Shown: positions 12,214-37,705 of the stretch, one piece after another
Layout of the letters: each line of letters starts with the position of its first letter
Position numbering within the stretch: position 1 is the first letter of the stretch
Source: an uncultured Candidatus Saccharibacteria bacterium
Lineage (GTDB): Bacteria > Patescibacteriota > Minisyncoccia > Phycocordibacterales > JABMNX01
NCBI GenBank assembly: GCA_964575755.1
Contig: CAZNRH010000003.1
Span: 2,303 to 66,302, forward strand
DNA: 64,000 nucleotides
Direction of reading: 5' to 3'
Made by a program: the position numbers and the translations under genes
The notes under the pieces: generated by a model
Databases searched by the model: none
Told to the model about the DNA's origin: nothing
What the model saw: only the letters and a program-made list of their open reading frames with translations

Positions 12214-12265
12214 AATAATTATCCTCCACATAAACACTTACCACAATAGCGCATCGACAACATGA

Positions 12266-18737: not shown

Positions 18738-18923
18738 CAAACTTTCAGATTTGGCGCATTTCGTTGTTGCTCTACTAAAAAAGACGCTCGTCGTATTTTC
18801 AATACGTCTCGTGTCTTTTTTCTTGCGCGCCTAGAACTGCACTTAAATCTGAATGCTTGCTCTATGATTACTTCTAGAGATTTTTTATTTTATACATAAA
18901 ACTCATTGACCCTATTAAAGACT

Positions 18924-20488: not shown

Positions 20489-22633
20489 ATGGAACGAGAA
20501 TATCCACTAGAAAGAGTCCGTAACTTCGGAATTATAGCCCACATCGATGCGGGTAAGACCACTGTGTCTGAGCGCATACTTTTCTATACAGGAGAAAGTC
20601 ATAAGATAGGTGAAGTTCACGACGGAGAGACTGTAACCGACTGGATGGAACAAGAGCGAGAGCGAGGTATCACTATTACCGCCGCCGCTATTTCCTGCTT
20701 GTGGAATAAGACAGATGAAGACCCTGATGATAATTCCAAAAAATACAGTTTTAACATTATTGATACTCCAGGACACATCGACTTCACAGTAGAGGTAAAA
20801 CGCTCAATGAGCGTGCTCGACGGAGCTATTGTTGTATTCGACGGTGTTTCAGGAGTAGAACCACAGTCAGAAACTAACTGGCGATATGCAGACGAAGCCG
20901 GAGTGCCTAGAATATGTTTTATTAACAAGCTTGACCGAACAGGAGCAAGTTTTGAGCGTTCATACGCAAGTATTCTCGATAGACTTTCACCAAATGCAGT
21001 ACGACTTCAGATTCCAATAGGCGAGGAGACAGACCATAAAGGAGTAATAGACCTGCTTGCCATGAAAGGATATACATTTGACGGAGTAATGGGAAAGGAT
21101 GTCATAAAAGGAGAGGTTCCAGAAAACCTTAAAGCAGATGCAGAGAAATATCGAGCAGAGCTTATAGAAAAAATAGTTGAACATGATGATGATCTTATGA
21201 ATCTATACCTTGAAGGTAAAGAGATACCATATGAAGATTTAAAAAGAGTTCTGAGAGTAGCAATTCTTAAGAACGCTATCTTTCCAGTATATGCTGGTTC
21301 AGCACTAAAGAACAAAGGAGTTCAGTTGGTGCTCGACGGCGTTGTTGATTACTTACCGTCACCAATGGACCTTCCGCCAGTAAAAGGAACAGACCCAAAA
21401 ACAGGAGAAGAAATATTACGAAAGCCTTCAGATGATGAACCGTTTGCAGCGCTAGCATTCAAGCTACAAACAGATCCATTTGTTGGTCAGCTTACATTCT
21501 TCCGTGTGTATTCAGGTACAGCAGAAGCTGGTTCATACATTTACAATGCATCAACGAAGAGTAAAGAACGACTCGGGCGAATTGTTCGCTTACAGGCTGA
21601 TAAACGAGAAGAAATAAAGAAAGTATTTGCAGGAGAGATTGCAGCTGCAGTTGGACTTAAAGATACAAAGACATCACACACACTTTGTGACGTAGATAAT
21701 CCAATTATTCTTGAAGAAATTACATTCCCAGAGCCAGTTATATCTCTGCGTATTGAACCTAAGACAAAAGCAGACCAAGAGAAGATGGGAATCGCACTCA
21801 ATAAACTTTCTGACGAGGATCCAACATTTAAAGTGAGTTCAGATTCTGAAACCATGGAGACAGTAATATCAGGAATGGGAGAGCTTCACCTTGAGATTCT
21901 TGTTGACCGTATGAAGAGAGAGTTTAATGTAGAGGCAGATGTAGGAACACCACAAGTGTCTTACAAAGAAACAATCCAAGGAGCGTCAGAAGCTGAAATA
22001 AAATACATAAAACAATCTGGTGGGCGTGGTCAATATGGTCATGTAAAGATTCGAATCAAACCACTTGAAGAGATTGAAGAAGGCGCAAAGATTGCAAAGA
22101 ACATAAAGAGAAGCGACCACTTCGAGTTTGTAAACTCAATTAAAGGAGGCGTTATTCCCCAGGAGTATATTCCAGCAGTTGAGAAGGGTGTTAAAGAAGC
22201 AATGGACAGAGGTATTCTTGCAGGATACAAAGCAGTTGATATTTCAGTAGAGCTTTACGATGGTTCATACCACGATGTTGACTCATCAGAAATTGCTTTC
22301 AAGATTGCAGGTTCACAAGCATTTAAAGATGCAGCAAGTAGAGCAAAGCCAGTACTTCTTGAGCCGATTATGAAAGTAGAAGTAGTAACCCCTGAGAAAT
22401 TCATGGGAGACATCAATGGAAACCTAAGTTCAAAGCGTGGACAGGTTGAAAGCATGGAAGACAGAGGAGGAAACAAGGTAATTAACGCTAAAGTACCTCT
22501 TTCAGAAATGTTTGGATACACCACAACACTACGCTCTATGACAGAAGGGCGAGCAAGTTCAACTATGGAGTTTGACCACTACGCAGTCGTACCTCAAAAT
22601 GTTGCAAAGGATATAATAGATGCAAGGAATTAA
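20489..22633 (+). CDS. fusA: Elongation factor G
   Basis: [10 protein letters not shown]-loop, DTPGHIDF, and domain IV/V motifs. Confidence 0.97.
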
Positions 22634-22719
22634 GTTTCTATTGAAAACCTATATTATATAAATTAGGAATGCCTGCCCCGTAGCTGGACGACTTAAAGGA
22701 GGACGTGGTGACTTAGGTA

Positions 22720-22760
22720 GCAAAAGACATTATCGACGCAAGGAACTAGAGTTTCTATTG
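22720..22760 (+). repeat. Displaced duplicate of the last 10 codons of fusA ([10 protein letters not shown]), carrying only synonymous substitutions
   Basis: Compare 22604-22643 with 22720-22760. Seven codons differ and all encode the same residues. An 85-bp insert separates the two copies. Confidence 0.8.
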
Positions 22761-22772
22761 TAAAATATACAT

Positions 22773-22806
22773 AAATAAATGCCCCAGGTACCTGGGGCAT
22801 TTATTT
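22773..22806. terminator. Perfect palindromic terminator AAATAAATGCCCCAGGTACCTGGGGCATTTATTT (family A)
   Basis: 16-bp stem between fusA and tuf. Related copies occur at 33491, 40024 and 50589. Confidence 0.75.
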
Positions 22807-23016
22807 ATGTATATTTTACGCCAGAATACTTGACTTATACATTCATTTCTTGCTATTATAGCGTCATCGCAATGGGCGCCTTTTTGTATGGGGATTCTTT
22901 TCTCTTGTATATTTAGATGTCTGTAGCTTATTATCAATAAGTATTTTTAAGAAGTAAATCACTTGTTCTCGCGCGTTTACTTTTCAAAAATACTAAATAT
23001 TTTAAATAAAATTATT

Positions 23017-24216
23017 ATGGCAGAAGAATTTGATCGTTCAAAACCACACGTAAACGTAGGAACAATTGGTCACGTTGACCACGGAAAGACTACACTTACA
23101 GCTAGTATCCTTCACGTCCTTAACTTGATGGGAGGAGAGTATGGCTCAAACCTTAAAAACGTTGACCAAATTGATAGCGCACCAGAAGAAAAAGAGCGAG
23201 GTATTACAATCGCGCTTTCTCACAATGAGTACTGGACACCAACACGTCACTATGCTCACATTGATGCTCCTGGCCACGCAGATTACATTAAAAACATGAT
23301 TACTGGTGCAGCACAGATGGACGGCGCAGTATTAGTTGTAGCAGCTTCAGATGGAGTTATGCCACAGACACAAGAGCACATCCTTCTTGCAAAGCAAGTC
23401 GGAGTACCTAAGATCATCGTATTCCTAAACAAGGTAGACCAAGTTGATGACAATGACCTTATTGATCTTGTAGAAGAAGAAGTTCGAGAACTTCTTACAA
23501 AATACGAATTCGACGGTGAAAATGCACCAATTATACGAGGTTCAGGACTTAAAGCTCTAGATGCAACATCAGTTGATGATGAATGGGCAAAGAAAATTAT
23601 TGAGCTTATCAAAGCTATGGACGAATACTTCCCAGTTCCAAAGCGAGATACTGATAAAGATTTCTTAATGCCAATTGAAGATGTCTTCTCAATTGAAGGC
23701 CGCGGCACAGTAGTTACAGGACGAATCGAGAGAGGAATAGTTAAGGTTGGAGAGGAAGTTGAAATCGTTGGTATTAAAGACACAGTGAAGACAACAGTTA
23801 CTGGAGTTGAGATGTTTAACAAACAACTTCAAGAAGGACAAGCTGGAGACAATGCAGGAATTCTTATTCGAGGAATCAAGAAAGAAGATATTCATCGAGG
23901 ACAAGTACTTGCTAAAGTAGGTTCAGTTACTCCTCATACAGAGTTTGAGGCTGAAGTATTTATCCTTAAAAAAGAAGAAGGTGGACGTCACACTCCATTC
24001 TTCACTGGATACAAGCCACAGTTCTACCTTGGAACAACAGACGTTACAGGGGATGTAACACTTGCTGAGGGAACAGAGATGGTTATGCCAGGAGACACAG
24101 TAACATTTAAAGTAAAGCTCGTAGGACCTATCGCACTTGAAGAACAGCAACACTTTGCTATTCGAGAAGGAGGTAAGACTGTTGGAGCTGGAGTTGTTAC
24201 AAAAATAGTCGCATAA
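23017..24216 (+). CDS. tuf: Elongation factor Tu
   Basis: [28 protein letters not shown]. The start is the internal ATG at 23017. Confidence 0.97.
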
Positions 24217-24293
24217 TAATTTATACGACTGCATAACGTACTCTAATAAAGTAAGCGTGTGTGGTACAGTGTACCCACAAGAAAAACAGAACC

Positions 24294-24710
24294 ATGACAA
24301 CCAAAGATACAAAGAAAGAAAAAGTAGTAAAGAAATCTACCAAGAAAAAAGTAGCCAAGAAGGTTGCACCTAAGAAGGCAACTAAAAAAGCTGCTGGAGA
24401 GGGAATTTCAAGATTACGTATTCGTGTGCGAGCATACGAACATAAACTTCTTGATACGTCTGTAAAACAGATTATTGATACTGCACTTCGGTATGATGCT
24501 GAAGTTGTCGGACCAACACCTCTTCCTACAGAAAGGAAGTTATACACTGTTAATCGTTCCAGTTTCGTACACAAAGATGCGCGAGAACAATTTGAAATGC
24601 GTGTACATAAGAGAATGATTGATATCCTCAACCCAAATCAAAAAGTTGTAGAGTCTTTGACTAATCTTTCTTTGCCGTCTGGTGTGAACATCGACGTAAA
24701 AATGCTCTAG
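24294..24710 (+). CDS. rpsJ: 30S ribosomal protein S10 with a Lys-rich N-terminal extension of about 40 aa
   Basis: S10 core RIRVRAYEHKLLD...VVGPTPLPT, preceded by KKEKVVKKSTKKKVAKKVAPKKATKKAAGE. Confidence 0.9.
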   Translation: MTTKDTKKEKVVKKSTKKKVAKKVAPKKATKKAAGEGISRLRIRVRAYEHKLLDTSVKQIIDTALRYDAEVVGPTPLPTERKLYTVNRSSFVHKDAREQFEMRVHKRMIDILNPNQKVVESLTNLSLPSGVNIDVKML

Positions 24711-24838
24711 TCGCAATCTCAAAAGCACTTCATCTGCGTTATTGTGGTTTAGAAAATCTCTTTCGCCGTATTGATTACGTCTCTAGAGATTTTCCTTCCA
24801 CACTTCGCATCTAAAGCACTTTTGAAATTGCTTAACAA

Positions 24839-24871
24839 AACACGCCATGTATGGCGTGTTTTGTGTTTTTT
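24839..24871 (+). terminator. Intrinsic terminator AACACGCCAT-GT-ATGGCGTGTT followed by TTGTGTTTTTT (family B)
   Basis: 10-bp GC-rich stem plus a U-tract. A related copy lies at 42236. Confidence 0.85.
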
Positions 24872-24921
24872 ACTGTGAAATGCGGTACTATTAATGTAGA
24901 GGTGTTAGACTTGTAATAAGT

Positions 24922-25203
24922 ATGGAGGAGAAAGAAATGGTGAATAATACTTTAGGAATTGACGTTCTGGAGGCTCTCGAACAAGCTGCTGTGGAACAGA
25001 CACCGAACGATGACGGCAGTTGTAAGACCGAAGGATGTAAAGGGAAAATAACCAAACAAGTTAGAGGAAAATCGAGTTACGGATATTTTTTTGATCCTGC
25101 TAAATGCGAAAATTGCTCGAGAGCTTATTTAAATTACGAATACGCTCAACCTATAGGCATAGCAGAATTTGAAGAGTCATTAAATCAACCCATGACGATT
25201 TAA
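24922..25203 (+). CDS. Small Cys4 zinc-ribbon protein, inserted between rpsJ and rplC
   Basis: CKTEGC...C-x2-C pattern (CENCS) with an acidic N-terminus. The gene is preceded by its own terminator. Confidence 0.45.
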   Translation: MEEKEMVNNTLGIDVLEALEQAAVEQTPNDDGSCKTEGCKGKITKQVRGKSSYGYFFDPAKCENCSRAYLNYEYAQPIGIAEFEESLNQPMTI

Positions 25204-25357
25204 GTGGTTCGAATACTTTAATAGGTCATATGTAATCTTTGTATATGGCCTATACTTTTTCTTGCATTATTTAATGACTTCTATATACTCTTCCCTAGAA
25301 ATGTATTGAATCGTTGACTCGATACATACACAATATTATAAAGAAAGGAATTGAAAG

Positions 25358-25630
25358 ATGTCCGATCTAGATGTTGCCATGAACGCTTTGCTTGATTGGG
25401 AAGCAATGTTAGCGAGCTTGGGCATGCAAAGAAATGCTGATGCAATAGGTATTTTGTGGCATGTCCGCAACTTGGGAAAAAGCCATAGAAGAAATTTCTT
25501 GCTTGTTCTGAAGGGAACAGGTCACTGCTCTGACGAATTTATCGTCGATTCAAGTATAGGTGAGCAAGCTGCTATAAGTCTTAAAAGACTTTTCAAAGCT
25601 GCTGGCGAACCTCAGTTCGACGAAGAATAA
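25358..25630 (+). CDS. Hypothetical 90-aa protein, inserted in the S10 operon
   Basis: ORF with the upstream AG-rich sequence AAAGAAAGGAATTGAAAG. Confidence 0.4.
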   Translation: MSDLDVAMNALLDWEAMLASLGMQRNADAIGILWHVRNLGKSHRRNFLLVLKGTGHCSDEFIVDSSIGEQAAISLKRLFKAAGEPQFDEE

Positions 25631-25828
25631 AATTGAACCTTTGTTCGATTAACCTGCCCTACGCAATCTGGCGTAGGGTTTTCTTTTTCTTGCAATATTT
25701 AGCTACTCCTGTATACTCTCTTTTGTACCTATTTAGTTTAGGTAGCTATGTTCTCTCAAGTGGGAACCTATGGCATATTCCATTGTTTGGATGCGCCATT
25801 ACGGCGCCTTTTTTGTACATATTTTTAA

Positions 25829-26458
25829 ATGAAATTTATTCTAGGAACAAAGCAATACATGACACAAGTCTTTGATAAAAAAGGCGTGGCTTATCCTGCT
25901 ACTGTTTTAGCTGCTGGTCCTGTTACTGTTACTCAAGTAAAAAATACTGAAAAAGATGGATATGATTCTGTTCAGGTTGGATACGGAGACAGACACGAGA
26001 AAAACATTAACAAAGCACAAAAAGGTCATTTTAAAGATTTAGGGCTATTTAGATATTTAAAAGAGTTCCGAGCAAAAAGCATCGGCAACGATGAATACAA
26101 AAGAGGAGATATTATTGATGTTTCAAAGTTTGAAGTGGGAGATATTGTAGAGGTTTCAGCAATTTCAAAAGGTAAAGGATTCCAAGGTGTTGTTAAACGA
26201 CACGGGTTTGCTGGAGGTCCACGTACTCACGGTAACAAACACCACGAACGTACCCCAGGTTCTATTGGAGCTCAGGGTCCACAGCGTGTACTTAAAGGAG
26301 TGAGAATGGCAGGACGAATGGGTTCAGACCGTGTTACGGTGAAAAACCTTAAAGTTCTTCAGGTTGATAAGGAAAACAATCAACTTGTAATCAAGGGAGC
26401 TGTACCAGGACACAGAGGGACTTTTGTTGAGGTTAGGGTAATGCAAAAGGCAAAATAA
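25829..26458 (+). CDS. rplC: 50S ribosomal protein L3
   Basis: MKFILGTKQYMTQVFD...GKGFQGVVKRHGF. Confidence 0.95.
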   Translation: MKFILGTKQYMTQVFDKKGVAYPATVLAAGPVTVTQVKNTEKDGYDSVQVGYGDRHEKNINKAQKGHFKDLGLFRYLKEFRAKSIGNDEYKRGDIIDVSKFEVGDIVEVSAISKGKGFQGVVKRHGFAGGPRTHGNKHHERTPGSIGAQGPQRVLKGVRMAGRMGSDRVTVKNLKVLQVDKENNQLVIKGAVPGHRGTFVEVRVMQKAK

Positions 26459-26468
26459 TTAAATAATT

Positions 26469-27380
26469 ATGGCCCCGTTAGAAGTTACGAAAATTAATAT
26501 GACAACAGAAACCAATACAAAAGAATACAAAAAGAAAGATAATCAAACGTCAAATTCGATGAGAAAGACTGGAGGGGTTTCTACTTCTAACGGGGTGGAA
26601 ACTAACGTATACAACCAAGAAGGAAAAACTGTTGGAAAGGTAAATCTACCAGAAGCTATTTTCGGACTTAAGTGGAATGCTGATCTAGTACATCAGGTTG
26701 TTGTTGGTTTGGAAGCTAATAAACGAACTCCAGTAGCCCACACAAAAGACAGAGGCGAGGTTCGCGGTGGAGGTAGAAAGCCATGGCAACAGAAAGGAAC
26801 TGGTCGCGCTCGTGTTGGCTCTTCACGTTCTCCTATTTGGAGAGGTGGTGGAATAACATTCGGTCCACGAAAAGATAAAGACTATTCAAAGAAGATTAAC
26901 AAGAAAATGAAGATTAAAGCACTCTACGTAGCGCTCTCACAGAAGATGCGTGACGGAGAAATAATCTTTATAGACTCACTTTCATTCTCAAGCCCAAAGA
27001 CAGCACAGGCAAAAAAAGTTCTTTCTGCACTTGCGTCAGTCAAAGGTTTTGATACTCTGGCAACAAAGAAGAAAAACAGTGCACTTATCGCTACAAATGA
27101 GAAAAATGTTGCTGTAGAAAAAAGTTTTAATAATATGGGCAATATTGAGGTGGACGAAGTGAGGAATATAAACGCTCGAGATCTGCTTCTACATAAATAC
27201 ATCATCATCACTAATCCAGAAGAAGCTGTTACATTTTTTGGTAGTAAGTTGAAGTCTGTTTCAAGGACCATGAAAGATGTGACAGAGAAGACAGCAACAA
27301 CAAAGAAAGAGTCAGACAAGAAGGAGGTAGTAAAGAAGACGCCTGTGAAAAAAGCTGTAAGTAAAGTAGTGAAAAAATAA
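26469..27380 (+). CDS. rplD: 50S ribosomal protein L4 with N- and C-terminal Lys-rich extensions
   Basis: GGGRKPWQQKGTGRAR core. Confidence 0.9.
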   Translation: MAPLEVTKINMTTETNTKEYKKKDNQTSNSMRKTGGVSTSNGVETNVYNQEGKTVGKVNLPEAIFGLKWNADLVHQVVVGLEANKRTPVAHTKDRGEVRGGGRKPWQQKGTGRARVGSSRSPIWRGGGITFGPRKDKDYSKKINKKMKIKALYVALSQKMRDGEIIFIDSLSFSSPKTAQAKKVLSALASVKGFDTLATKKKNSALIATNEKNVAVEKSFNNMGNIEVDEVRNINARDLLLHKYIIITNPEEAVTFFGSKLKSVSRTMKDVTEKTATTKKESDKKEVVKKTPVKKAVSKVVKK

Positions 27381-27381
27381 C

Positions 27382-27843
27382 ATGGCATTATTTCGATTAA
27401 AAAAAGAAAATGTTGAGAAAGAGAAAATCTCTGATGAGAAAGTAGTTTCTGATACTAAAGCAACCCAGACTGTAAAAAAGACGGATGTTGTTAAAAAAAG
27501 TACTGAAACTAAGGTAGTAAAAAAATCTTCTTCAGATGTCCTTTCTCTTAATTACAGAAAAGACATAGCGTCAGTACTTAAGAATCCTCGAGTGACTGAG
27601 AAGGCAACTATTATGTCTGAAAGAGGTGTGTACGTGTTTGATGTATCTACACGAGCAACCAAGGCAGATGTTGCAGAAGCCGTTAAAGAACTTTACAAAG
27701 TGACTCCACGAAAGATAAACATGGTAAAGGTTCCTTCAAAACGAACAAGGGTACGTGGACAGCAAAATAAGTTTGGGGTAAAGTCAGGAGGAAAGAAGGC
27801 GTATGTATACGTAAAGAAGGGTGACACTATTGATATAGTTTAG
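27382..27843 (+). CDS. rplW: 50S ribosomal protein L23 with an N-terminal extension
   Basis: YVFDVSTRATKADVAEAVKELYKV. Confidence 0.9.
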   Translation: MALFRLKKENVEKEKISDEKVVSDTKATQTVKKTDVVKKSTETKVVKKSSSDVLSLNYRKDIASVLKNPRVTEKATIMSERGVYVFDVSTRATKADVAEAVKELYKVTPRKINMVKVPSKRTRVRGQQNKFGVKSGGKKAYVYVKKGDTIDIV

Positions 27844-27860
27844 TTATATTATTTTGAAGT

Positions 27861-28700
27861 ATGAAAACATATAAACCAACATCACCAGGGCAAAGAGGAA
27901 TGACACGAGTAAGTTTTAAAAAACTTACGGTTTCTAGCCCGTTCAAAAAACTGACCAAAGGCAAGAAGCGTCATGTGGGGCGAAACAGTCAAGGACGTAT
28001 TACTACAAGGCATAAAGGTGGTGGTCACAAGAGACTTTATCGTGATATAGACTTCCTTTTTAATAAAAGAGATATACCTGCAAAGATTGAGACAATCGAG
28101 TATGATCCAAACAGAACAGCATTTATTGCACTTGTATTATACGCTGACGGAGAGCGTCGTTACATGCTCTTGCCACAATCACTTGAGGTTGGGGATAGTA
28201 TTATAACTTCAGAAAAGGCTCCACTTAAGGCTGGAAATAGGCTTAGATTGAAGAATATCCCCGTAGGTACGTTTGTATATAGTATTGAATTAAAACCAGA
28301 AGGTGGGTCTAAATTAGCTCGCTCTGCAGGAAATTACGCTGAGGTTATTGGACAAGATGCTGGGTATACTCTACTTAAGATGCCTTCAAGTGAAGTTCGA
28401 AAAGTTCTTGAGAATTCTTGGGCATCAGTCGGAGAAGTTTCAAATGAGGAACATAAGTTAGTAAATATAGGAAAGGCTGGAAGAAACAGATGGCTCGGTA
28501 AACGACCTACTGTACGTGGAGCGGCTATGAACGCCGTTGATCACCCACATGGAGGTGGAGAAGGTAAAGCTGGGCGAGGGCACCGAAGACAGCGTACTAA
28601 GTGGGGTAAGCCAGCAGGAAAAGGCCAGAAGACAAGAAAGATAAAGAAATATTCAAACACACTTATTGTACGTAGGCGAAAAGTCGGAAAGAGACGATAA
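27861..28700 (+). CDS. rplB: 50S ribosomal protein L2
   Basis: GRNSQGRITTRHKGGGHKR ... HPHGGGEGK. Confidence 0.97.
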   Translation: MKTYKPTSPGQRGMTRVSFKKLTVSSPFKKLTKGKKRHVGRNSQGRITTRHKGGGHKRLYRDIDFLFNKRDIPAKIETIEYDPNRTAFIALVLYADGERRYMLLPQSLEVGDSIITSEKAPLKAGNRLRLKNIPVGTFVYSIELKPEGGSKLARSAGNYAEVIGQDAGYTLLKMPSSEVRKVLENSWASVGEVSNEEHKLVNIGKAGRNRWLGKRPTVRGAAMNAVDHPHGGGEGKAGRGHRRQRTKWGKPAGKGQKTRKIKKYSNTLIVRRRKVGKRR

Positions 28701-28703
28701 ATA

Positions 28704-28731
28704 AAAAACCAAGGGCAGTCCTTGGTTTTTT
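28704..28731 (+). terminator. Intrinsic terminator
   Basis: AAAAAACCAAGG-GCAGT-CCTTGGTTTTTT. Confidence 0.85.
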
Positions 28732-28801
28732 ATTACCTTGTTTTTTTGTGGATGATGTGTTTTATTTATTATAGTAAAGGCTTTATAGATATAAGGAGGA
28801 T

Positions 28802-29128
28802 ATGGTAATGGAAGATTCACCTATAGCATGTTTGTGGACTGGTCATTTTACTGACTTACAGAAGAACTCCGGTGGCGGCTTTGATTATGAGGTACGGGAA
28901 ATTAGCAAGAGGTATATCTCAAAATATGCTAGAAAAGCACTCGTATTTCATTCAAATGACAAGGTGTCAATTAGTTACTCTAACGGCTCTAATGTTGTAG
29001 TTAAAGTTCATGAGTCTAATGGTAAAATACTCTTAGATGTTATGGATAAAAAAGGAAATCGAATCAAGAGACTGTTTATTGAGATTAATGGTCGCCGTAC
29101 ATATATTTATAAAAAAAGAAAGGTTTAA
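28802..29128 (+). CDS. Hypothetical basic protein of 108 aa, inserted between rplB and rpsS
   Basis: The ORF is flanked by terminators and has no recognisable family. Confidence 0.4.
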   Translation: MVMEDSPIACLWTGHFTDLQKNSGGGFDYEVREISKRYISKYARKALVFHSNDKVSISYSNGSNVVVKVHESNGKILLDVMDKKGNRIKRLFIEINGRRTYIYKKRKV

Positions 29129-29297
29129 AGTGACGTCAGGAATCATCCAAGCGTCATTTTTTTTGGCAATAATTCATCTTTAAAATACATTTAACCGTTG
29201 GTATTCGATTGTACTCACTCTCTTCTTTTGTGATTTGACACCGGCCTTCGTTTTAGCTATTATGTACGCCAAGCTCGAGAGAGCTTTTTAATTTGAA

Positions 29298-29633
29298 ATG
29301 GCACGATCTATTAAAAAAGGACCATACGTAGACCCAAGACTTCAAAGGAAGATCGAAGGTAAAAAGCCAAATGATACTGGCGTTGTTAAGACGTGGGCAC
29401 GAAGAAGCCAAATCTCTCCTGATATGGTTGGATTTACTTTCGGTGTTCATAACGGCAGAGACCATATTGAGGTTTTTGTTACTGATGAGATGGTTGGACA
29501 TCGTCTAGGAGAGTTTTCTCCTACTAAGAAGTTCCATCGCCATGGAGGTAAAATGCAGAAAGAATTAGAGCAACGACAGAAAGAAGCTGAGATTACAGCA
29601 GCTAAGGCAGCTAAAGTAGCAGCCGATAAATAA
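29298..29633 (+). CDS. rpsS: 30S ribosomal protein S19 with a C-terminal extension
   Basis: [15 protein letters not shown]...[10 protein letters not shown]. Confidence 0.95.
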
Positions 29634-29645
29634 ACATAAATATTC

Positions 29646-29975
29646 ATGAAAGCACGACTTAAAAATTATCGACAATCTCCACGCAAGGTTAGACTTGTTG
29701 CTAATCTTGTACGCGGTAAGAGTGTTGTTAGAGCACTGACAGCTCTCTCATTTTTAGACAAGAAGTCAGCAGCCCCAATTAAGAAATTAATTGAGTCAGC
29801 AGTTTCAAATGCAGAAAACAAAGGGTCGAAAAAGGAAGACTTAGCTGTTTCAGATATTCAAGTAGACGAAGGGGTTTCATTTACACGCTTTCGTCCTCGA
29901 GCACGTGGGCGAGCAGCTCCTATAAAACGTCGCTCGAGTCACATAAATATAAATCTAACTAATTCAAAAAACTAA
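29646..29975 (+). CDS. rplV: 50S ribosomal protein L22
   Basis: MKARLKNYRQSPRKVRLVANLVRGKSV. Confidence 0.95.
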   Translation: MKARLKNYRQSPRKVRLVANLVRGKSVVRALTALSFLDKKSAAPIKKLIESAVSNAENKGSKKEDLAVSDIQVDEGVSFTRFRPRARGRAAPIKRRSSHININLTNSKN

Positions 29976-29999
29976 AACCTAGAATCTAACGCTTTAAAC

Positions 30000-30665
30000 A
30001 TGACACATAACGTACACCCATATTCACATAGACTCGGAATACTTCGCGACTGGAAATCTCGGTGGTTTTCTTCAAACCCACAAGAATATCGTGAGGGTAT
30101 TAAGCTCGATGTAAGTATTCGGGAGTTTTTAACAAAACAACTACGTGGTAAATACGTTAGTTCTATTGAGATGGAACGAAACCAGAAAACACTTCGAGTT
30201 ATTATCAAAACCACCCGACCTGGAATTATTATTGGCAGAAGTGGCGAAGGTAGCGCGAAGATAAAAGCTGACGTTGAAAAGATGACCAAGAAGCTCAGGA
30301 TAGAAGAGCTTCCAGAAATTAAGATTGATATTGAAGAAGTACGATCACCAGAATCAAATGCAGCAATCGTATCTCAAATGATCGCAGAAGGCTTAGAAAA
30401 GCGAATGCCGTTTCGTCGAGTGTTAAAACAGACAGTAGACAAAGTAATGGCAAATCGAGACGTTGAAGGAGTCAGGATTTCTGTAGCAGGACGACTTGGA
30501 GGAACTGAGATGGCGCGACAAGAGCAAATAAAGAAGGGGCGTATTCCACTTCAGACATTTAGGGCAGATATTGATTTTGCACGAGAAAAGGCGTATCTTC
30601 CATACGGTGTAATAGGTATTAAAGTATGGATATATAAGGGTGACGTATTTGATACTAATGAATAA
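30000..30665 (+). CDS. rpsC: 30S ribosomal protein S3
   Basis: HPYSHRLGILRDWKSRWF with KH domain. Confidence 0.95.
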   Translation: MTHNVHPYSHRLGILRDWKSRWFSSNPQEYREGIKLDVSIREFLTKQLRGKYVSSIEMERNQKTLRVIIKTTRPGIIIGRSGEGSAKIKADVEKMTKKLRIEELPEIKIDIEEVRSPESNAAIVSQMIAEGLEKRMPFRRVLKQTVDKVMANRDVEGVRISVAGRLGGTEMARQEQIKKGRIPLQTFRADIDFAREKAYLPYGVIGIKVWIYKGDVFDTNE

Positions 30666-30670
30666 GGCTT

Positions 30671-31093
30671 ATGTTATTTCCAAAGAAAGTAAAATACAGA
30701 AAATGGCAGACACGCCGTTCAAATAAAAACAAAGTGCACAATGCAACAAGGGGTGTAACCGTAGCATTTGGTTCACACGGTCTTAAAGCTGTTGCTATGA
30801 AGCGGGTTACATCAAACCAAATAGAGGCAGCAAGACGTGTTATTAGCCGAACGTTAGGAAAGACAGGAAAGACGTGGATTCGTATTTTTCCAGACCGACC
30901 AATCACAGCTAAGGCAGCTGAGGTAGGTATGGGTAAAGGAAAAGGAGACTTAAAGCACTATGTTGCTGAAGTACTTCCTGGTCGTATTCTATTTGAAATA
31001 GACGGAGTTGAAGACGATGTGGCTAAAGAAGCTCTTCGAAAAGCTGGAGCAAAACTTCCTCTTAAGACCAAGATAGTAACTAGGCAGGCATAA
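30671..31093 (+). CDS. rplP: 50S ribosomal protein L16
   Basis: MLFPKKVKYRKWQ. Confidence 0.95.
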   Translation: MLFPKKVKYRKWQTRRSNKNKVHNATRGVTVAFGSHGLKAVAMKRVTSNQIEAARRVISRTLGKTGKTWIRIFPDRPITAKAAEVGMGKGKGDLKHYVAEVLPGRILFEIDGVEDDVAKEALRKAGAKLPLKTKIVTRQA

Positions 31094-31103
31094 TAAAAAA
31101 ATT

Positions 31104-31292
31104 ATGAAAAAAGAACCAGTAATTAAAAGCAAGAGCAGTAAAGATTTAATAAAAACACTTAACGAAAAACGTGAAGAGTTAAGGAAGTTTCGTTTTGGTA
31201 TCTCAGGAAGTAAGACTCGTAATGTAAAAGAAGGAAGAAACACACGAAAAGAGGTCGCAAAGGTTCTCACTGAGTTAAACTCAAGAGTATAA
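31104..31292 (+). CDS. rpmC: 50S ribosomal protein L29
   Basis: Position between rplP and rpsQ, a size of 62 aa, and a coiled-coil composition. Confidence 0.8.
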
Positions 31293-31300
31293 ATAAAAAT

Positions 31301-31582
31301 ATGACTGACAAACAAACAACAAATAAAGAAGTTGAAAGCTCTACTCCAAAAGCTAAGAAAGTATTTAGTGGTACGGTGGTATCTAACAAAATGAAAGACA
31401 CAATAGTTGTCTTGGTATCTAGGTACACAAAGCATCCAAAGTACAAGAAGTTTTTAAAGCGTTCAAAGAAGTTTATGGCGCACGATGCAGGGAACACCAA
31501 GGAGATTGGAGACAAAGTAAATATAGAAGAAGCGCGGCCAATGTCGAAAAACAAGAAGTTCAAACTAGTCGACAGTAAGTAA
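31301..31582 (+). CDS. rpsQ: 30S ribosomal protein S17
   Basis: [30 protein letters not shown]. Confidence 0.9.
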
Positions 31583-31645
31583 CTATTAGTTTATAGTAAC
31601 CACTCATTACCTTAAAGCTGACACCTGTAACCTAAAACCTAGAAC

Positions 31646-32017
31646 ATGATTCAACCACAAACAACAGTAAAAATAACCGACAACTCAGGCGCAAAGATAG
31701 GCGTTGTGTTTAAGGTTCTTGGTGGATCTAAGCGTAGGTATGCTCGTATTGGAGACTTGGTAGTTCTTTCCATAAAATCAGTTGAGCCACGAAAGATGAT
31801 AAAAAAGAAAGAAGTTGTTCGAGGTATTGTAGTACGCCAAAAGCAACCATTCAGACGCAAGGATGGTTCTTATATAAGATTCGACGAGAATGCAGTCGTT
31901 TTAGTTGAAAAGGAGAAGAAAGAACCTAGAGCAGGACGAATCTTTGGTCCAATTCCACGAGAGATTGCAGAAGCTGGATACCAGAAGATTGTTTCTCTTG
32001 CACCAGAGGTTGTATAA
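31646..32017 (+). CDS. rplN: 50S ribosomal protein L14
   Basis: MIQPQTTVKITDNSGAK. Confidence 0.95.
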   Translation: MIQPQTTVKITDNSGAKIGVVFKVLGGSKRRYARIGDLVVLSIKSVEPRKMIKKKEVVRGIVVRQKQPFRRKDGSYIRFDENAVVLVEKEKKEPRAGRIFGPIPREIAEAGYQKIVSLAPEVV

Positions 32018-32027
32018 AGATATACAT

Positions 32028-32336
32028 ATGAAAATCAAAAAGGATGACAAAGTAATAGTGATTGCAGGGAAAGACCGAGGAAAGAAAGGTAAGGTTCTTC
32101 GAGCACTTCCAAGGGAAGACCGTGTGATAGTCGAAGGTGTTAATGTTGTTAAACGACACCAGAAGGCAACTTCACAGCGCCAGAATGGACAGATTATAGA
32201 CAAGACTCTTCCTATTCATGTTTCAAATGTAATGATTGTTGACCCAAAGACAGGCAAGAGAACACGGATTGGCATCAAAAGAGTAAATGGTAAGTACACA
32301 CGTATCGCAAAAAAGAGTAATACAAAGATTTCATAA
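32028..32336 (+). CDS. rplX: 50S ribosomal protein L24
   Basis: MKIKKDDKVIVIAGKDRGKKGKV. The start is the internal ATG at 32028; the 5' extension in the ORF track overlaps rplN and was rejected. Confidence 0.9.
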   Translation: MKIKKDDKVIVIAGKDRGKKGKVLRALPREDRVIVEGVNVVKRHQKATSQRQNGQIIDKTLPIHVSNVMIVDPKTGKRTRIGIKRVNGKYTRIAKKSNTKIS

Positions 32337-32341
32337 CACGT

Positions 32342-32875
32342 ATGTCATTAACAAAAGAAAAACAAAATAGTATTTTTGGCTCTATTAAAGAGAAGTTAAA
32401 CTACACAAACGTTTCTCAGTCACCAAAGATTGAAAAAGTCTCCGTGTCTGTTGGAGTTGGCTCAATAAAGGATAAAAAGAAAATAGAGACAATTATAGAT
32501 CGACTTACAAAAATAACAGGACAAAAGCCTTCTGCCTGCCCTGCAAAGAAGTCAATCGCTACATTTAAGCTTCGAGAAGGAGACGTTATTGGATACCAGG
32601 TGACACTGCGTGGTTCACGTATGTATGATTTTCTTGATAAGCTCATCCATGTTGCACTTCCAAGAACTCGTGACTTTAGGGGAATTAAACTTTCATCAAT
32701 AGATGAGATGGGTAATATTTCTATCGGGATTAAAGAGCATACAATATTCCCAGAGACTTCAGATGAAGAGCTAAGGAATGTATTTGGAATGAGTATTACT
32801 ATTACAACTTCATCTAGTACGAGAGAAGAGACTGAGGCTTTGTTACGCGGCATACAATTCCCACTTCAGAAATAA
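32342..32875 (+). CDS. rplE: 50S ribosomal protein L5
   Basis: KLREGDVIGYQVTLRGSRMYDFLDKLI...PRTRDFRG. Confidence 0.95.
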   Translation: MSLTKEKQNSIFGSIKEKLNYTNVSQSPKIEKVSVSVGVGSIKDKKKIETIIDRLTKITGQKPSACPAKKSIATFKLREGDVIGYQVTLRGSRMYDFLDKLIHVALPRTRDFRGIKLSSIDEMGNISIGIKEHTIFPETSDEELRNVFGMSITITTSSSTREETEALLRGIQFPLQK

Positions 32876-32992
32876 AACCCCATTTTAAGCGAATTACTTC
32901 GTTGTGTTCGCGAAAATATTGTTCACAATACGCTTGTATTGCTCTCAATATTTTCGCTCCACAGCCTCGTACTTCATCTTAAAATGGGGTTT
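32875..32992. repeat. 118-nt nested hairpin element with 15-bp perfect terminal inverted repeats AAACCCCATTTTAAG/CTTAAAATGGGGTTT, an inner 12-bp stem GCGAAAATATTG/CAATATTTTCGC and a core hairpin CAATAC-GCTT-GTATTG
   Basis: It fills the entire rplE-to-next-gene spacer. Its left arm begins inside the rplE stop codon and its right arm ends 5 nt before the ATG at 32998. Confidence 0.8.
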
Positions 32993-32997
32993 CTGGG

Positions 32998-33453
32998 ATG
33001 TTTGATAAAGCGATTCGTGCTCTTTCAAAAGAAGAAAATGATTCAAGTTATATATCAGATGTACACGTTGTATTTTGGGGTGATATAAAAAATGAGGGAT
33101 ATAATCACTTAAGAGAAATATTAGAAAAGGAGTATAAAATAAATAAAAAATTTAAAGAAAAGATTCTTTACTTTGTAAATAAATACGTTGAATTTAGAGA
33201 GGCTGAAGTCTCTGAAGGAGACAAAGATAAGCTCGCTGGTTATATCATAAGCGAACTACCGACTCTGTTAGGTGGAGTTTTGTGGAACAACACTTTATAT
33301 GATCTTGTTCTTTATCCAACATATGTAGATAGTGGAATGAGTCAATTCGTTTTAGATATACGAGGAGGTAAATATTTCGATTCTTCAAAACTTCTCTTGA
33401 GACAGCTCAATACTCTTGTGGAAGATTATCTGGAAAAGCCCAAGTTATCCTGA
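32998..33453 (+). CDS. Hypothetical 151-aa protein, inserted between rplE and rpsN
   Basis: The ORF is bracketed by the nested hairpin element upstream and a 19-bp-stem terminator downstream. Confidence 0.45.
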   Translation: MFDKAIRALSKEENDSSYISDVHVVFWGDIKNEGYNHLREILEKEYKINKKFKEKILYFVNKYVEFREAEVSEGDKDKLAGYIISELPTLLGGVLWNNTLYDLVLYPTYVDSGMSQFVLDIRGGKYFDSSKLLLRQLNTLVEDYLEKPKLS

Positions 33454-33490
33454 AAAATAAGTCTATATAGACTAGTAAACAACCATTTCA

Positions 33491-33541
33491 AGCCATTTTA
33501 AATGCCCCAGGTGGTTGGGGCATTTAAAATGGCTTGTTTTG
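33491..33541. terminator. Terminator of family A: AGCCATTTTAAATGCCCCA-GGTGGT-TGGGGCATTTAAAATGGCT followed by TGTTTTG
   Basis: 19-bp perfect stem. Confidence 0.85.
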
Positions 33542-33658
33542 TGGCAAAAGTTGCTTAAAACCCTTTTAGAACAAGAGTTTTATTTGACTTTAGGCGCTTC
33601 AACTGATAATATGTGCCAAGCGTTTCAAAGCGCTTTTTTAATTAGCTATATATAATTC

Positions 33659-33844
33659 ATGGCAAAGAAATCAGTAATAGCTCGGTCACAAAAGACCCCA
33701 AAGTTTAAGTCACGTGTTGTGCGGCGATGTTTTCGTTGTGGGCGTACTCATGGGTATATGAGAGATTTCGACCTTTGTCGTATATGTTTTAGAGAACAAG
33801 CAAATGACGGAAATTTACCAGGAATCAAAAAAGCATCATGGTAA
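33659..33844 (+). CDS. rpsZ: 30S ribosomal protein S14, type Z (zinc-binding)
   Basis: [23 protein letters not shown] Cys4 motif on a 61-aa protein. Confidence 0.95.
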
Positions 33845-34233
33845 CAGACACAGTAGGAGATTTCATAATAAGACTTAAAAATGCATCCATAATGAAAAAG
33901 GATGTTGTGAGTACTCCGTATTCAAAATTACGATTTGCAGTTGCTCAGTCATTACAGAAAAATGGATATATCAAATCAGTAAACAAAAAAGGTAAAAAAA
34001 TAGAAAAAACTATTGAGGTTGAATTAGCCTACGATAAAGACAACAAATCAGTCATTACTGATGTTAAGCGTGTGTCTAGTCCAGGACGCCGAACATACTA
34101 CGGTACTAAAGATATACAGCCAGTAAAGTATGGAAGAGGCTCTCTTATCCTTTCAACACCAAAGGGTATTTTGACAGACAAGGAGGCTAAGAAAGAAAAC
34201 GTTGGAGGTGAAGCGTTGTTTAAAATTTGGTAA
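33838..34233 (+). CDS. rpsH: 30S ribosomal protein S8
   Basis: [18 protein letters not shown]. Confidence 0.95.
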
Positions 34234-34239
34234 ACAGAT

Positions 34240-34776
34240 ATGTCACGTATAGGTAAACAAAAAATAAGTATTCCAGAAAAGACAGAAGTAACTGTTTCTG
34301 GTAATTCTGTTTCTGTGAAGGGTCCTCTTGGAGAACTTACAAAAGATCTTCATGAAGCTATTACAGTGAGCGTTGATAACAACGAAGTAGTAGTTTCCCC
34401 TGTTAGTAATACGATACAAGCAAGAGCTTTGTGGGGAACATATGCTTCTCACATAAAGAGCATGATAGAGGGAGTAAACAAGGTATTCGAAAAAAAGCTT
34501 ATCGTAGAAGGAATTGGATATAAAGTAAATCTTTCCGGAAAGAATCTAGAGCTTATAGTAGGTTTTTCTCATCCAGTAATTCTTACTCTTCCAGAAGGAA
34601 TCAATGTTGTTGTTGAAAAAAACAACATATCAATATCAGGTTCTGATAAACAAATAGTTGGACAATTTACTGCAGAGATTCGAGACGTAAAGAGACCAGA
34701 GCCTTACAAAGGTAAGGGAATACGATATGAAGATGAAATAGTTCGCCGAAAACAAGGTAAGAAGACTGTAGGATAA
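34240..34776 (+). CDS. rplF: 50S ribosomal protein L6
   Basis: [33 protein letters not shown]. Confidence 0.95.
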
Positions 34777-34795
34777 GAATAGTAGAATAAAAAAT

Positions 34796-35143
34796 ATGTT
34801 AAGTAATATAAAAAAAATAAGACGACAAAGGAGACATAATCGCGTACGAGCGAAGATTTCCGGCACAGATACCACTCCACGGTTGTCTGTATTCAAGTCT
34901 AATACACGTATTACTGCGCAGGTTATTAATGATGAAAAGGGTGAGACTATCGCATCTTCTTCCACTACAGATTTTAAAAAAGGAACTCTTAAAGACAAAG
35001 CAGTAGAGGTGGGAAAGAAGATTGCACAAGACGTAAAAGGTAAAAAAATAGAGAAGGTCGTATTTGATAGAGGAGGATTTCTATACACAGGGAACATTAA
35101 AGCACTTGCTGACAGCGCAAGAGAAGGCGGGTTAAAGTTTTAA
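34796..35143 (+). CDS. rplR: 50S ribosomal protein L18
   Basis: [34 protein letters not shown]. Confidence 0.95.
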
Positions 35144-35160
35144 TATAATTTTTAATACAT

Positions 35161-35766
35161 ATGACAGAAGAAACACTACAAAAGAAAACGACTGAACCAA
35201 AGAGCGATGTAACACCAAAGACACCAGCAACATCTACGAGTACAGATAAGCCTCCTGCAAGTACTCCTGCAAGAAACACAGGCTTCAGGAAAAATACTCG
35301 TAGAATAGTTCGTAGACAAGATAGAGCTCGTTCAGAGTTCACTCAAAAGATCATCAGTATCCGCCGAGTTACTCGTGTTATGGCAGGTGGGCGACGTTTT
35401 GGTTTTTCAGTAGCAATGGTTCTAGGAGATCAGAAGGGGCGTGTTGGAATAGGTACTGGCAAGGCAACAGACACAGCACTTGCGATTGAGAAGGCTATCC
35501 GACAAGCAAAGAAAAACATGATTAAGATAAATACTACGAAAGAAATGAGTATTGCTCATGACGTAAACATGAAGTACGGTGCATCTGTTATTCAGATAAT
35601 TCCGGCGAAAGGACGAGGTCTTGTTGCAGGTAGTTCAGTAAGGACAATTCTCGAGCTTGCAGGAATCAAAGATGTAACAGCAAAGATTTTCTCACGAAGC
35701 AAGAACAAGCTTAATAATGCACAAGCTACCATCAATGCGCTTAAACAATTGAAAGTTGAAAACTAA
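35161..35766 (+). CDS. rpsE: 30S ribosomal protein S5 with an N-terminal Thr/Pro/Lys-rich extension
   Basis: RRVTRVMAGGRRFGFSVAMVLGDQKGRVGIGTGKA. Confidence 0.95.
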   Translation: MTEETLQKKTTEPKSDVTPKTPATSTSTDKPPASTPARNTGFRKNTRRIVRRQDRARSEFTQKIISIRRVTRVMAGGRRFGFSVAMVLGDQKGRVGIGTGKATDTALAIEKAIRQAKKNMIKINTTKEMSIAHDVNMKYGASVIQIIPAKGRGLVAGSSVRTILELAGIKDVTAKIFSRSKNKLNNAQATINALKQLKVEN

Positions 35767-35770
35767 AAAC

Positions 35771-36220
35771 ATGCAATTAAACGATTTAAAACAAAAGACA
35801 AAACGAATAACAAAAAAGCGAATTGGTCGCGGTGGTCTTCGAGGTAAAACATCTGGACGTGGACACAAGGGTCAAAAAGCGCGTGCCGGACATTCACTTC
35901 GCCCAGAATGGCGAGATATAATCAAAAGGCTTCCAAAGCTACGTGGACACGGCAAGAACAGAGCTCGAACAATTAATAGTTCTGTTGTTAAACCTACACC
36001 AGTAAATCTAGCTATTTTAGAGGCGACATTCTCAGACGGTGAGGTAGTTACCCCAACTGTTTTGTTTGATAAGAACATTGTTTCTCGTGTAGATGGTAAG
36101 ATGCCTAAAGTAAAAATTCTTGGTCTAGGATCTATTTCCAAGAAAGTATCAATTGAAGAGTGTCTTGTCTCAAAGACTGCAAAAGAGGCGATAGAAAAAG
36201 CAGGTGGAAGTATAAAATAA
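35771..36220 (+). CDS. rplO: 50S ribosomal protein L15. It follows rpsE directly with no rpmD (L30) between them.
   Basis: MQLNDLKQKTKRITKKRIGRGGLRGKTSGRGHKGQKAR. The start is the ATG at 35771; the 35756 start in the ORF track overlaps rpsE. Confidence 0.9.
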   Translation: MQLNDLKQKTKRITKKRIGRGGLRGKTSGRGHKGQKARAGHSLRPEWRDIIKRLPKLRGHGKNRARTINSSVVKPTPVNLAILEATFSDGEVVTPTVLFDKNIVSRVDGKMPKVKILGLGSISKKVSIEECLVSKTAKEAIEKAGGSIK

Positions 36221-36233
36221 AGATATAAAAATC

Positions 36234-37508: not shown

Positions 37509-37705
37509 GACTCCAAAATTTGCTAAAACTCCTAAAATTGACCCAGAGCTTCGTCAGTTACGAAAAAAGTTTTCTCACCGTATGTTCATACGGCTCAAAA
37601 ACTTTTTTCTTACTTTCTCGCCCTGAATCAATTTAATGAGTTTATGTCCCTTCGTTTGGCGTTCAATTTTTAAACAGTGGAGATGAATAAGGTATACTAG
37701 ATATC

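Follow-up and report, generated by a model that had tools for sequence, protein, structure and literature searches.

Variable small genes at fixed break points of the str/S10/spc ribosomal-protein cluster in a Paceibacteria genome appear to be passengers

What are four small open reading frames (ORFs) doing inside a ribosomal-protein gene cluster? The question is raised by a 64,000-nucleotide stretch of an uncultured bacterium of the Candidate Phyla Radiation (CPR), contig CAZNRH010000003.1 of assembly GCA_964575755.1; this whole stretch is called the window below. Its + strand carries at ~17.8-38.3 kb the genes rpsL, rpsG, fusA, tuf, rpsJ, and the S10/spc genes to secY and adk. The junctions rpsJ-rplC, rplB-rpsS, and rplE-rpsN are interrupted by four ORFs, here named orfA, orfB, orfC, and orfD. 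A first-pass annotation of the sequence had proposed that they encode novel ribosome-associated proteins or that they are small selfish or defence cassettes. The GC content of the window is ~38%. The top matches of its L2 protein are metagenome-assembled genomes of Kaiserbacteria, Parcubacteria, and Paceibacterota, with identities of at most 84%.

The answer that we favor, with a probability of roughly 0.7, is that the cluster is a chain of separately transcribed short blocks whose boundaries tolerate the gain, swapping, and decay of genes, and that the ORFs are passengers of these boundaries, none of them ribosomal. The str/S10/spc cluster of this Paceibacteria genome would then consist of short independent transcription units instead of two long operons. 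The proposed blocks are ...rpsL-rpsG, fusA, tuf-rpsJ, rplC-rplD-rplW-rplB, rpsS...rplE, and rpsN...secY. They end with a palindromic hairpin of ~120 nt directly at the stop codon, with an intrinsic terminator, or with both, and they start with sigma-70-like promoters that are followed by short 5' stem-loops. The spacers between blocks would be selectively permissive because nothing downstream would rely on read-through, and unrelated stand-alone genes could be gained, swapped, and lost quickly in them. As passengers, the four ORFs are ordinary: one dead gene of a known enzyme, two genes from small families that are uncharacterised, and an orphan.

Related genomes indicate where such boundaries lie. 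The gap from the stop codon of one gene to the start of the next was determined for each adjacent pair in 80 related species. Gaps longer than 150 bp are present at L2|S19 in 52 of 61 species (85%; median 774 bp, maximum 7.3 kb), at L5|S14 in 37 of 52 (71%), at S10|L3 in 22 of 63 (35%), and at fusA|tuf in 38 of 39. From S10 to L6, the medians of all remaining junctions are 17 bp or less, and gaps are hardly ever longer than 150 bp there; the median between tuf and S10 is 40 bp. The internal junctions of rplC-rplD-rplW-rplB are tight in 79-80 relatives, and every internal junction of the rpsS...rplE block is tight as well. The content of the gaps is heterogeneous. The gaps contain 194 non-overlapping ORFs with a minimum length of 60 aa, and 155 of these are singletons. 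Their Pfam matches are led by pilin-like N_methyl (10), DUF3298 (5), and diacylglycerol (DAG) kinase (4), and further include SAICAR synthetase, IS200 transposases, reverse transcriptase, MazF, and many single families. None of orfA to orfD was found at these junctions in the 80 species, and tblastn gave no homologue of orfA, orfB, or orfC at E <= 1e-3 in their ribosomal-protein loci, which agrees with the earlier description of lineage-specific inserts with downstream terminators at breaks of S10/spc. Since the same junctions are open with heterogeneous cargo in these species, the inserts of the window represent one instance of a general property. No account of these break points was found in the searchable literature.

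The closest relative, reached through the search for orfD homologues, is contig CAZVBS010000001.1 of GCA_964625905.1 (L081). The flanking ribosomal proteins of the two genomes are 83-99% identical, with 90% aa identity for the rpsJ product. L081 is interrupted at the same three junctions, and the contents differ. Its S10|L3 slot has a zinc-ribbon ORF of 85 aa, which shares 37% identity with orfA, and orfB is absent. Its L2|S19 slot has a 93-aa ORF, unrelated to orfC, with its own ribosome-binding site and terminator. Its L5|S14 slot has a full-length gene for a 237-aa cyclodipeptide synthase (CDPS), the enzyme to which orfD is related. Synteny within the slots is therefore kept for orfA and the CDPS gene only. 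The interrupted junctions are not an assembly artefact, because L081 shares all three and the products of the window's ORFs recur on 2-3 contigs.

The signals between the blocks fit these boundaries. There are 24 terminator-like sites in 22000-38000, compared with 8.9 +/- 2.5 in shuffled sequences, and a stem-loop with a T-run lies downstream of each of the four ORFs; the first-pass annotation had described both the ORFs and their flanking terminators correctly. All features that follow are on the + strand unless marked. The tuf-rpsJ block ends with rpsJ (S10; 24261-24710), which has a Lys-rich N-terminal extension and whose L081 orthologue matches Pfam Ribosomal_S10. A terminator-like hairpin with a T-run at 24835-24864 (13-bp stem, -19.8 kcal/mol) closes this unit and has an equivalent in L081. 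A similar stem-loop with a T-run follows orfA (25221-25253). The block of rplC-rplD-rplW-rplB (L3, L4, L23, L2; 25829-28700) and that of rpsS...rplE (S19, L22, S3, L16, L29, S17, L14, L24, L5; 29298-32875) were both assigned from the ORFs and from the Pfam matches of the L081 orthologues. The former has a promoter conserved in L081 (25683-25719, boxes 25690-25717) and is closed by a terminator at 28700-28734 (15-16-bp stem plus T-run). After orfC there is another at 29127-29160 (-13.8 kcal/mol, then T8). The rpsS promoter (TTGACA-17-TATTAT, 11/12 matches; boxes 29235-29263) and its 5' stem-loop (29271-29286) span 29235-29286, and the region 29233-29293 is 93% identical to L081 6120-6180, as against ~84% for neighboring coding DNA. 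The CDPS remnant is followed by the long-stem terminator that had been noticed before (33489-33536; a 20-22-bp stem here), which is conserved in L081. The rpsN promoter (TTGACT-17-TAATAT with an upstream TG; boxes 33584-33612) and its 5' stem-loop (33618-33635) span 33584-33635 and fall in a block that is 89% identical to L081; the rpsN ORF itself (S14, zinc type; 33659-33844) opens the next block.

The leaders and terminators have further features. The stem-loops of rpsS and rpsN are near-identical (AAGC-N-GCTT, then T4-6) and lie between the -10 box and the start codon, and no obvious Shine-Dalgarno sequence was seen before either gene. The rplC leader (25720-25828, ~110 nt; L081 2776-2938) is conserved in L081 and terminates in a GC-rich stem-loop and T-run (25793-25807), ~15 nt ahead of the start codon. 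It might serve as an attenuator of the L3-L4-L23-L2 unit, comparable to the S10 leader of E. coli, which is under the control of L4. Rfam runs, at the gathering threshold and, for the three gaps, also by E-value, gave only generic hairpin matches far below threshold, and no leader or hairpin could be placed in a described RNA family. Three long-stem terminators (22753-22826, 33489-33536, and 50576-50609) share the core AAATGCCCCAGGT..GGGGCATTT and form a small terminator repeat family, D4, whose repeat copies are at 22767, 33490, and 50579. Its copy between fusA and tuf (22753-22826) is a perfect-type palindrome with 37-nt arms.

Of the four ORFs, orfD (32998-33453, 151 aa; homology from 32986) has the clearest identity. 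It is the remnant of a 5'-truncated gene for a tRNA-dependent CDPS. There are 99 homologues of ~240 aa, with identities of 48-85% and E values down to 1e-79; most match PF16715, and several are named tRNA-dependent cyclodipeptide synthase. The homologues cover all of orfD, but through their C-terminal ~150 residues only. The product of orfD is 85% identical to residues 87-237 of P0011, the full-length CDPS encoded in the L5|S14 slot of L081, and tblastn of this protein against the window gives 84.5% identity over residues 83-237. Residues 1-82 are encoded nowhere in the 64-kb window. Window 32986-34587 aligns to L081 10247-11848 (89%) and the L081 gene begins at 10001; the CDPS promoter region and codons 1-82 are deleted in the window. 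The ORF starts at M87 of P0011, leaving out residues 1-86. Its scores are below the cut-offs (16.4 bits against 27 for Pfam, 21.4 bits against 45 for TIGR04539; P0011 passes the latter with 54.2 bits), and its PADLOC and PHROGs matches are weak only.

The closest solved CDPS (PF16715, TIGR04539) is ParcuCDPS of Parcubacteria bacterium RAAC4_OD1_1 (PDB 7QB8 and variants), which makes cyclo(His-Pro) and which P0011 matches at ~E = 1e-15. Residues S26, D58, Y167, and E171 of ParcuCDPS are essential (PMC7613923). The catalytic S26 (...ISLGNK...) aligns to S23 of P0011. This is upstream of residue 87, so that the catalytic serine is absent from orfD. The Tyr and Glu are retained in the motif KLAGYIISELP, which aligns through P0011 to kfgrYileElp (Y167, E171). 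In contrast to ParcuCDPS, orfD also lacks the D58 region, its own promoter, and a ribosome-binding site. The deletion ends at the 3' foot of the palindromic hairpin at rplE; extending from there into the CDPS gene, it would have removed the promoter and the first 82 codons, including that of the acyl-enzyme serine. Judged by its sequence, orfD is a gene remnant and not an enzyme, and it cannot make cyclodipeptides. Homology to a known non-ribosomal family, which the first-pass annotation had named beforehand as evidence against its proposal, is thus present in orfD. In another Patescibacterium (L082), the CDPS gene is far from ribosomal-protein genes; its place in the L5|S14 slot is therefore lineage-specific. 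The CDPS gene of L081 has a TATACT box ~8 nt before its ATG (9980-10003) and no Shine-Dalgarno sequence, and its mRNA may be leaderless.

For orfA, orfB, and orfC, a word-indexed protein search missed 90-108-aa query proteins that are present in the collection, and its negatives for such short proteins are unreliable. The three were searched exhaustively, as a concatenated query, against 1.84 billion cluster representatives (50% identity clusters). The gene orfB (25358-25630, 90 aa) has four distant homologues (31-36% identity, E 3e-8 to 5e-4), which are free-standing in other contexts. The AlphaFold2 model predicts a small protein of four helices (predicted local distance difference test, pLDDT, 86). 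Foldseek gave no fold match for it in PDB (E >= 3), and there was no match in NCBIfam, or in PADLOC-DB or PHROGs at E <= 0.01.

It appears that orfB arrived recently. A 37-nt direct repeat of the rplC promoter (D14) brackets the orfB cassette. The copy in front of orfB (25255-25291; TTGCAT-17-TATACT) is 94% identical to the sole L081 copy at 2741-2775, and the second is the copy at 25683-25719 given above; the two are 84% identical to each other. Window 25664-26472 aligns to L081 2720-3552, and the terminator behind orfB (25656-25679) is homologous to the one behind the orfA orthologue of L081. Because of this homology and the single promoter copy of L081, it is likely that ~460 bp, made up of a terminator, a promoter copy, and orfB, were inserted between orfA and its original terminator. 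The duplicated flanking promoter, together with the lack of orfB in L081, indicates from sequence comparison that orfB is a recent insertion. A two-gene module of orfA and orfB was considered and rejected, because an orfB homologue is preceded by a gene that does not resemble orfA and because the two families never co-occur elsewhere. Another ORF of 80 aa (25633-25875) is probably spurious, as it lies across the promoter and leader of rplC and its codon score is negative.

The product of orfA (24922-25203, 93 aa) was described in the first-pass annotation as a Cys4 zinc ribbon, and this description is upheld. A GGAGGAG Shine-Dalgarno sequence at 24924-24930 favors a start at ATG 24937, which would give 88 aa. 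The search found 43 homologous cluster representatives besides orfA, of 67-128 aa, with 30-48% identity and E values down to 1e-13. All named members are from Patescibacteria or Paceibacterota. Residues C34, C39, C62, C65, and Y69 are invariant in 46 sequences, and the C-terminus (...VG..EF......P.TI) is conserved. The AlphaFold2 model (pLDDT 90, predicted template modeling score, pTM, 0.72) has a helix, zinc-ribbon beta-hairpins with strands at 42-51, 54-57, and 60-62, and another helix. Thus, the two conserved Cys pairs are modeled on the knuckles of beta-hairpins, and the protein is predicted to bind metal. Most likely it binds nucleic acid or a partner protein, as suggested by its fold class.

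Comparisons with known families gave little for orfA. It has no assignment in Pfam, NCBIfam, PHROGs, or PADLOC (the last two at E <= 0.01), and no ribosomal Pfam family was matched by any of 45 family members. The family profile gave only chance zinc-finger matches among solved structures (E >= 0.18), and Foldseek with the model found no significant match in PDB (E >= 3) or BFVD. One homologue, P0117, weakly matches PHROGs of unknown function (E = 0.0016). Like the lid domain of adenylate kinase (LID, PF05191) and the zinc-ribbon ribosomal proteins, orfA has CxxxxC and CxxC pairs that flank a beta-hairpin, and its CxxCGRxY motif resembles one knuckle of the lid. PF05191 is matched weakly by 4 of 45 family members (best E = 8e-6). 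However, orfA itself does not match PF05191, the order of its knuckles differs, and it has extra N- and C-terminal helices. An origin from the adenylate kinase lid was dropped as homology, and the likeness is considered a resemblance of motifs.

The orfA family is found in at least five unrelated genomic contexts. Members are present between a TSP3-like gene and a convergent gene for a 410-aa hypothetical protein, near ligA-gatCA, in two divergent organisms; among small hypothetical genes; and ahead of a type IV secretion system (T4SS) pilin/SLT gene. Because of these unrelated contexts, orfA is not specific to the ribosome. In the ribosomal-protein loci of the 80 species, the family profile gave a single marginal match (L032, E = 0.005), which is outside the S10|L3 slot. 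Compared with its L081 counterpart, orfA has a nonsynonymous divergence (dN) of 0.68 and a saturated synonymous divergence (dS), the latter unreliable because the alignment is only 37% identical; the flanking genes have dS values of 0.3-1.1. From the sequences, substitution by a divergent allele appears more likely than evolution in place. It is concluded that orfA is a genuine gene, which encodes a small protein with a Cys4 zinc ribbon, and not a clade-wide component of the ribosome. In one subclade (L085 6001-7582, L093 6001-7665, and L094 287-1951), the orfA-family gene is always convergent with a gene of ~410 aa that has no Pfam match, and the pairing is kept between organisms with orfA homologues from separate 50% clusters. 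A functional partnership of both genes is possible. The 410-aa and 461-aa neighbors of orfA homologues have no counterpart in the window.

The basic ORF orfC (28802-29128, 108 aa) is an orphan. The sequence AAGGAGG, 8 nt before ATG 28808, favors a start that would give 106 aa, and a 106-aa form in another assembly (P0004) is identical to orfC from M3 on. Beyond P0004, which is its own cluster representative, orfC matches only two large repeat proteins (P0132 and P0157). Its match to a protein with five PepSY repeats has a phmmer E of 6e-6 summed over the repeats and 36% identity over 50 aa in BLASTP. A comparison with the PepSY repeat (PF03413, ~60 aa) by hhalign gave a weak partial match, with a probability of 76% over 34 columns. 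There was no match to Pfam or NCBIfam, or to PADLOC-DB or PHROGs at E <= 0.01. The gene-like signals of orfC come with no evolutionary support, and it may or may not be functional. Profile searches had been suggested at the outset; the statement that the four proteins have no recognisable family fails for orfD.

Several points weigh against the account of separate blocks with passengers. The boundaries of the transcription units are deduced from consensus patterns of promoters and terminators only. The 80 species are the best 80 L2 matches, so that the sampling is biased and limited to one class. A search for promoters gave no convincing one for orfA; read-through from tuf-rpsJ may apply, which would tie orfA closer to the translation genes, and one member of its family follows rpsP-khpA-trmD, a translation operon. 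The dN/dS of CDPS between the window and L081 is 0.21, and the surviving half is not visibly decayed. The deletion is probably recent, given this value; either the truncation is very recent or the fragment retains some use. The codon-usage log-likelihoods of the small ORFs (0.065-0.235 bits/codon) do not separate them from spurious antisense ORFs, whose 95th percentile is 0.155, and the coding status of orfC is supported by its ribosome-binding site and terminator only. The codon comparison that was first suggested therefore does not discriminate at such ORF lengths. GC and GC at third codon positions (GC3) of the ORFs are within the host range.

The last of these points lead to the alternative that survives best, namely that some ORFs, especially orfC and the truncated orfD, are chance or decaying frames, without function, in the spacers between transcription units. 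The lack of close homologues of orfC would agree with this, as would the overlap of codon scores and the fact that the L2|S19 slot of each close relative is occupied by another, unrelated ORF. For orfD, the loss of the promoter, the original start codon, and the catalytic serine would agree as well. However, orfC has a canonical AAGGAGG sequence and its own terminator, and the non-homologous ORF of L081 in this slot has the same gene-like layout. The alternative does not apply to orfA and orfB, since both have conserved homologues and confident folds. It is possible for part of the set, and we hold it to be clearly less probable than passenger genes at permissive boundaries.

The palindromic hairpins at the ends of the blocks raise another possibility. 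The nested hairpin element of the first-pass annotation is real. This rod-like structure of 32871-32994 overlaps the rplE stop codon and has a folding energy of -51 kcal/mol (z = -9.05; 113 bits with covariance model R2). It resembles the hairpin at 24711-24832, which starts directly after the rpsJ stop codon (-41.3 kcal/mol, z = -8.1; 122 bits with model R1 and 91 bits with R2). Both are conserved in L081, where a copy follows rplE. A search of the window and relatives with R1 and R2 gave seven copies in the window, at 2449-2570(+), 16660-16784(-), 18736-18859(+), 24711-24832(+), 32871-32994(+), 37523-37645(+), and 42284-42407(-). All seven are in the sense orientation and start at a stop codon or at most 16 nt after it, and the genes ahead of them encode a pilB-like ATPase, L28, S7, S10, L5, SecY, and L20.

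There are 28 sense-strand matches in the window and 12 relatives, among which are L005, L007, L011, L012, L018, L045, L057, L065, L068, L079, and L081. For 24 of these copies, all in the sense orientation, the first nucleotide falls between -7 and +14 nt relative to the stop codon of a gene with 90 aa or more. The host genes are those of S10 (5), L5 (3), L23 (3), S7 (3), SecY (3), tuf (2), L2, L28, and L20, together with one adk-like and one pilB-like gene; outside the window this bias is partly due to sampling, because the loci were chosen around ribosomal-protein genes. The copies are only 50-60% identical to one another. In an alignment of 12 copies with 35 pairs, 86.9% of the cells are paired, compared with 63.5% in shuffles and 32-47% in slid controls; double changes are seen in 29 pairs, and G-U pairs are nearly absent. 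The best-preserved copies have the form TA(G/A)AAC...GTT(C/T)TA, with the stop codon within the 5' terminal repeat. The TA...TA ends are compatible with duplication of a TA target and also with TA as part of the repeat, and no empty site was found. The family has no Rfam entry, and no account of it was found in the searchable literature.

Correia (NEMIS) elements of Neisseria and ERIC (IRU) elements of enterobacteria are imperfect palindromic repeats of ~100-155 bp, similar to miniature inverted-repeat transposable elements (MITEs), that are co-transcribed with flanking genes. They are the closest analogues of the hairpins, which are likewise rod-like (~120 nt), have terminal inverted repeats, and are dispersed (7 in 64 kb), intergenic, and on the transcribed side. 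The hairpins differ in keeping register with the stop codon, in following mostly translation genes, and in diverging with compensatory pair changes; the stop-codon register and the compensated divergence are unusual. No cognate transposase was identified for them, and none was searched for. The hairpins could possibly be a lineage-specific functional module at the 3' ends of translation-gene transcription units in Paceibacteria, and not inert MITEs, an idea that we regard as improbable. At most ~3 nt separate the stop codon from the basal helix, which a terminating ribosome would therefore have to melt. If the idea is true, translation of the last cistron would be coupled to termination, processing, or stability of the transcript. 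The repeats would also define the block boundaries, and recombination between copies could drive the gain, swapping, and truncation of cargo; one copy has the end of the CDPS deletion at its foot. In a lesser variant, the orfA zinc-ribbon family may act in trans as a partner of these structures in RNA or DNA.

Still less probable is a reading of the inserts as small cassettes of a selfish or defence type (for example toxin-antitoxin, anti-phage, or mobile-element cargo) that exploit a highly expressed, undeletable locus. The fast turnover of the slots, which in relatives sometimes hold IS200-type transposases, a reverse transcriptase, or a MazF toxin, is consistent with this. So are the 37-nt direct repeat around orfB, the divergence of orfA between otherwise close genomes, the MITE-like palindromes at the slot edges, and the orfA homologue ahead of a T4SS pilin/SLT gene. 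However, orfA, orfB, and orfC match nothing in PADLOC-DB or PHROGs, no toxin-antitoxin-like pairing was seen, and the slots of the window have no integrase or transposase. The base composition of the ORFs is within the range of the host, and the cargo in relatives is mostly ordinary metabolic or envelope genes. The earlier suggestion was right in spirit about cassettes in a permissive locus, and a defence function found no direct support.

The least probable reading is that orfA, and possibly orfB or orfC, encode novel lineage-specific ribosomal or ribosome-associated proteins that are clustered for co-expression; it draws on a conserved, small, basic zinc ribbon of a fold class common among ribosomal proteins, placed directly behind tuf-rpsJ without a clear promoter of its own and kept there in L081, but the orfA family is rare (~45 clusters at 50% identity), is missing from the loci of the 80 species, has no ribosomal Pfam family or ribosomal fold in PDB, and evolves 7-170x faster than the neighboring ribosomal proteins (dN 0.68 vs 0.004-0.11), orfB and orfC are not common even to L081, and orfD is non-ribosomal.

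Passengers at the boundaries of short blocks thus remain the preferred reading, and the cluster can be compared on this basis with canonical S10/spc operons, such as those of E. coli (rpsJ...rpsQ and rplN...rpmJ). The gene order from rpsJ to secY is the same, and most genes are tightly packed. The unit boundaries of the window, however, are at S10|L3, L2|S19, and L5|S14 and not at S17|L14, each with terminators, promoters, and variable non-ribosomal cargo, and the same is found in most of the 80 sampled Paceibacteria-type species. The window also lacks L30. Variation of the S10-spc-alpha cluster has been documented in Leptospira (PMC2481283) and in a reconstruction of operon clusters (PMC8046335), and the absence of L30 is a CPR trait (PMC9297842).

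Other features of the window were noted. The gene for S5, which has an N-terminal extension of ~60 aa, overlaps the start of L15 within 35161-36220, with no L30 gene between them. Lys/Thr-rich extensions are present on S10, L4, L23, and S5. The rpsG/fusA junction is also interrupted, by a hydrophobic, membrane-like ORF of 165 aa (18987-19484) and an ORF of 218 aa with a lipoprotein-type signal (…FVFTAC; 19683-20339), neither of which has a Pfam match. Repeats are found as an exact 48-nt tandem duplication at 6035-6130, a 127-nt direct repeat (98% identical; 7641-7767 and 8535-8661, 894 nt apart) that flanks the ORF 7752-8525, and two identical 27-nt palindromes (12265-12291 and 12712-12738) that flank the ORF 12309-12719.

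For new ribosomal proteins the result is deflationary, as there is no sign of any. Two things are mildly new, namely that the break points form a fixed set in this class and that a family of repeats abuts stop codons. The orfA family, a compact zinc ribbon with a confident predicted fold and no structural neighbor, is a tractable target. The hairpin repeats are a testable candidate for a 3' untranslated regulatory element, or for an unusually site-specific MITE, in organisms whose gene regulation is almost unknown. Phylogeny and binning of CPR genomes use the ribosomal-protein cluster as a marker, and the three fixed breaks with their variable inserts matter for annotation, for concatenated-marker pipelines, and for operon models.

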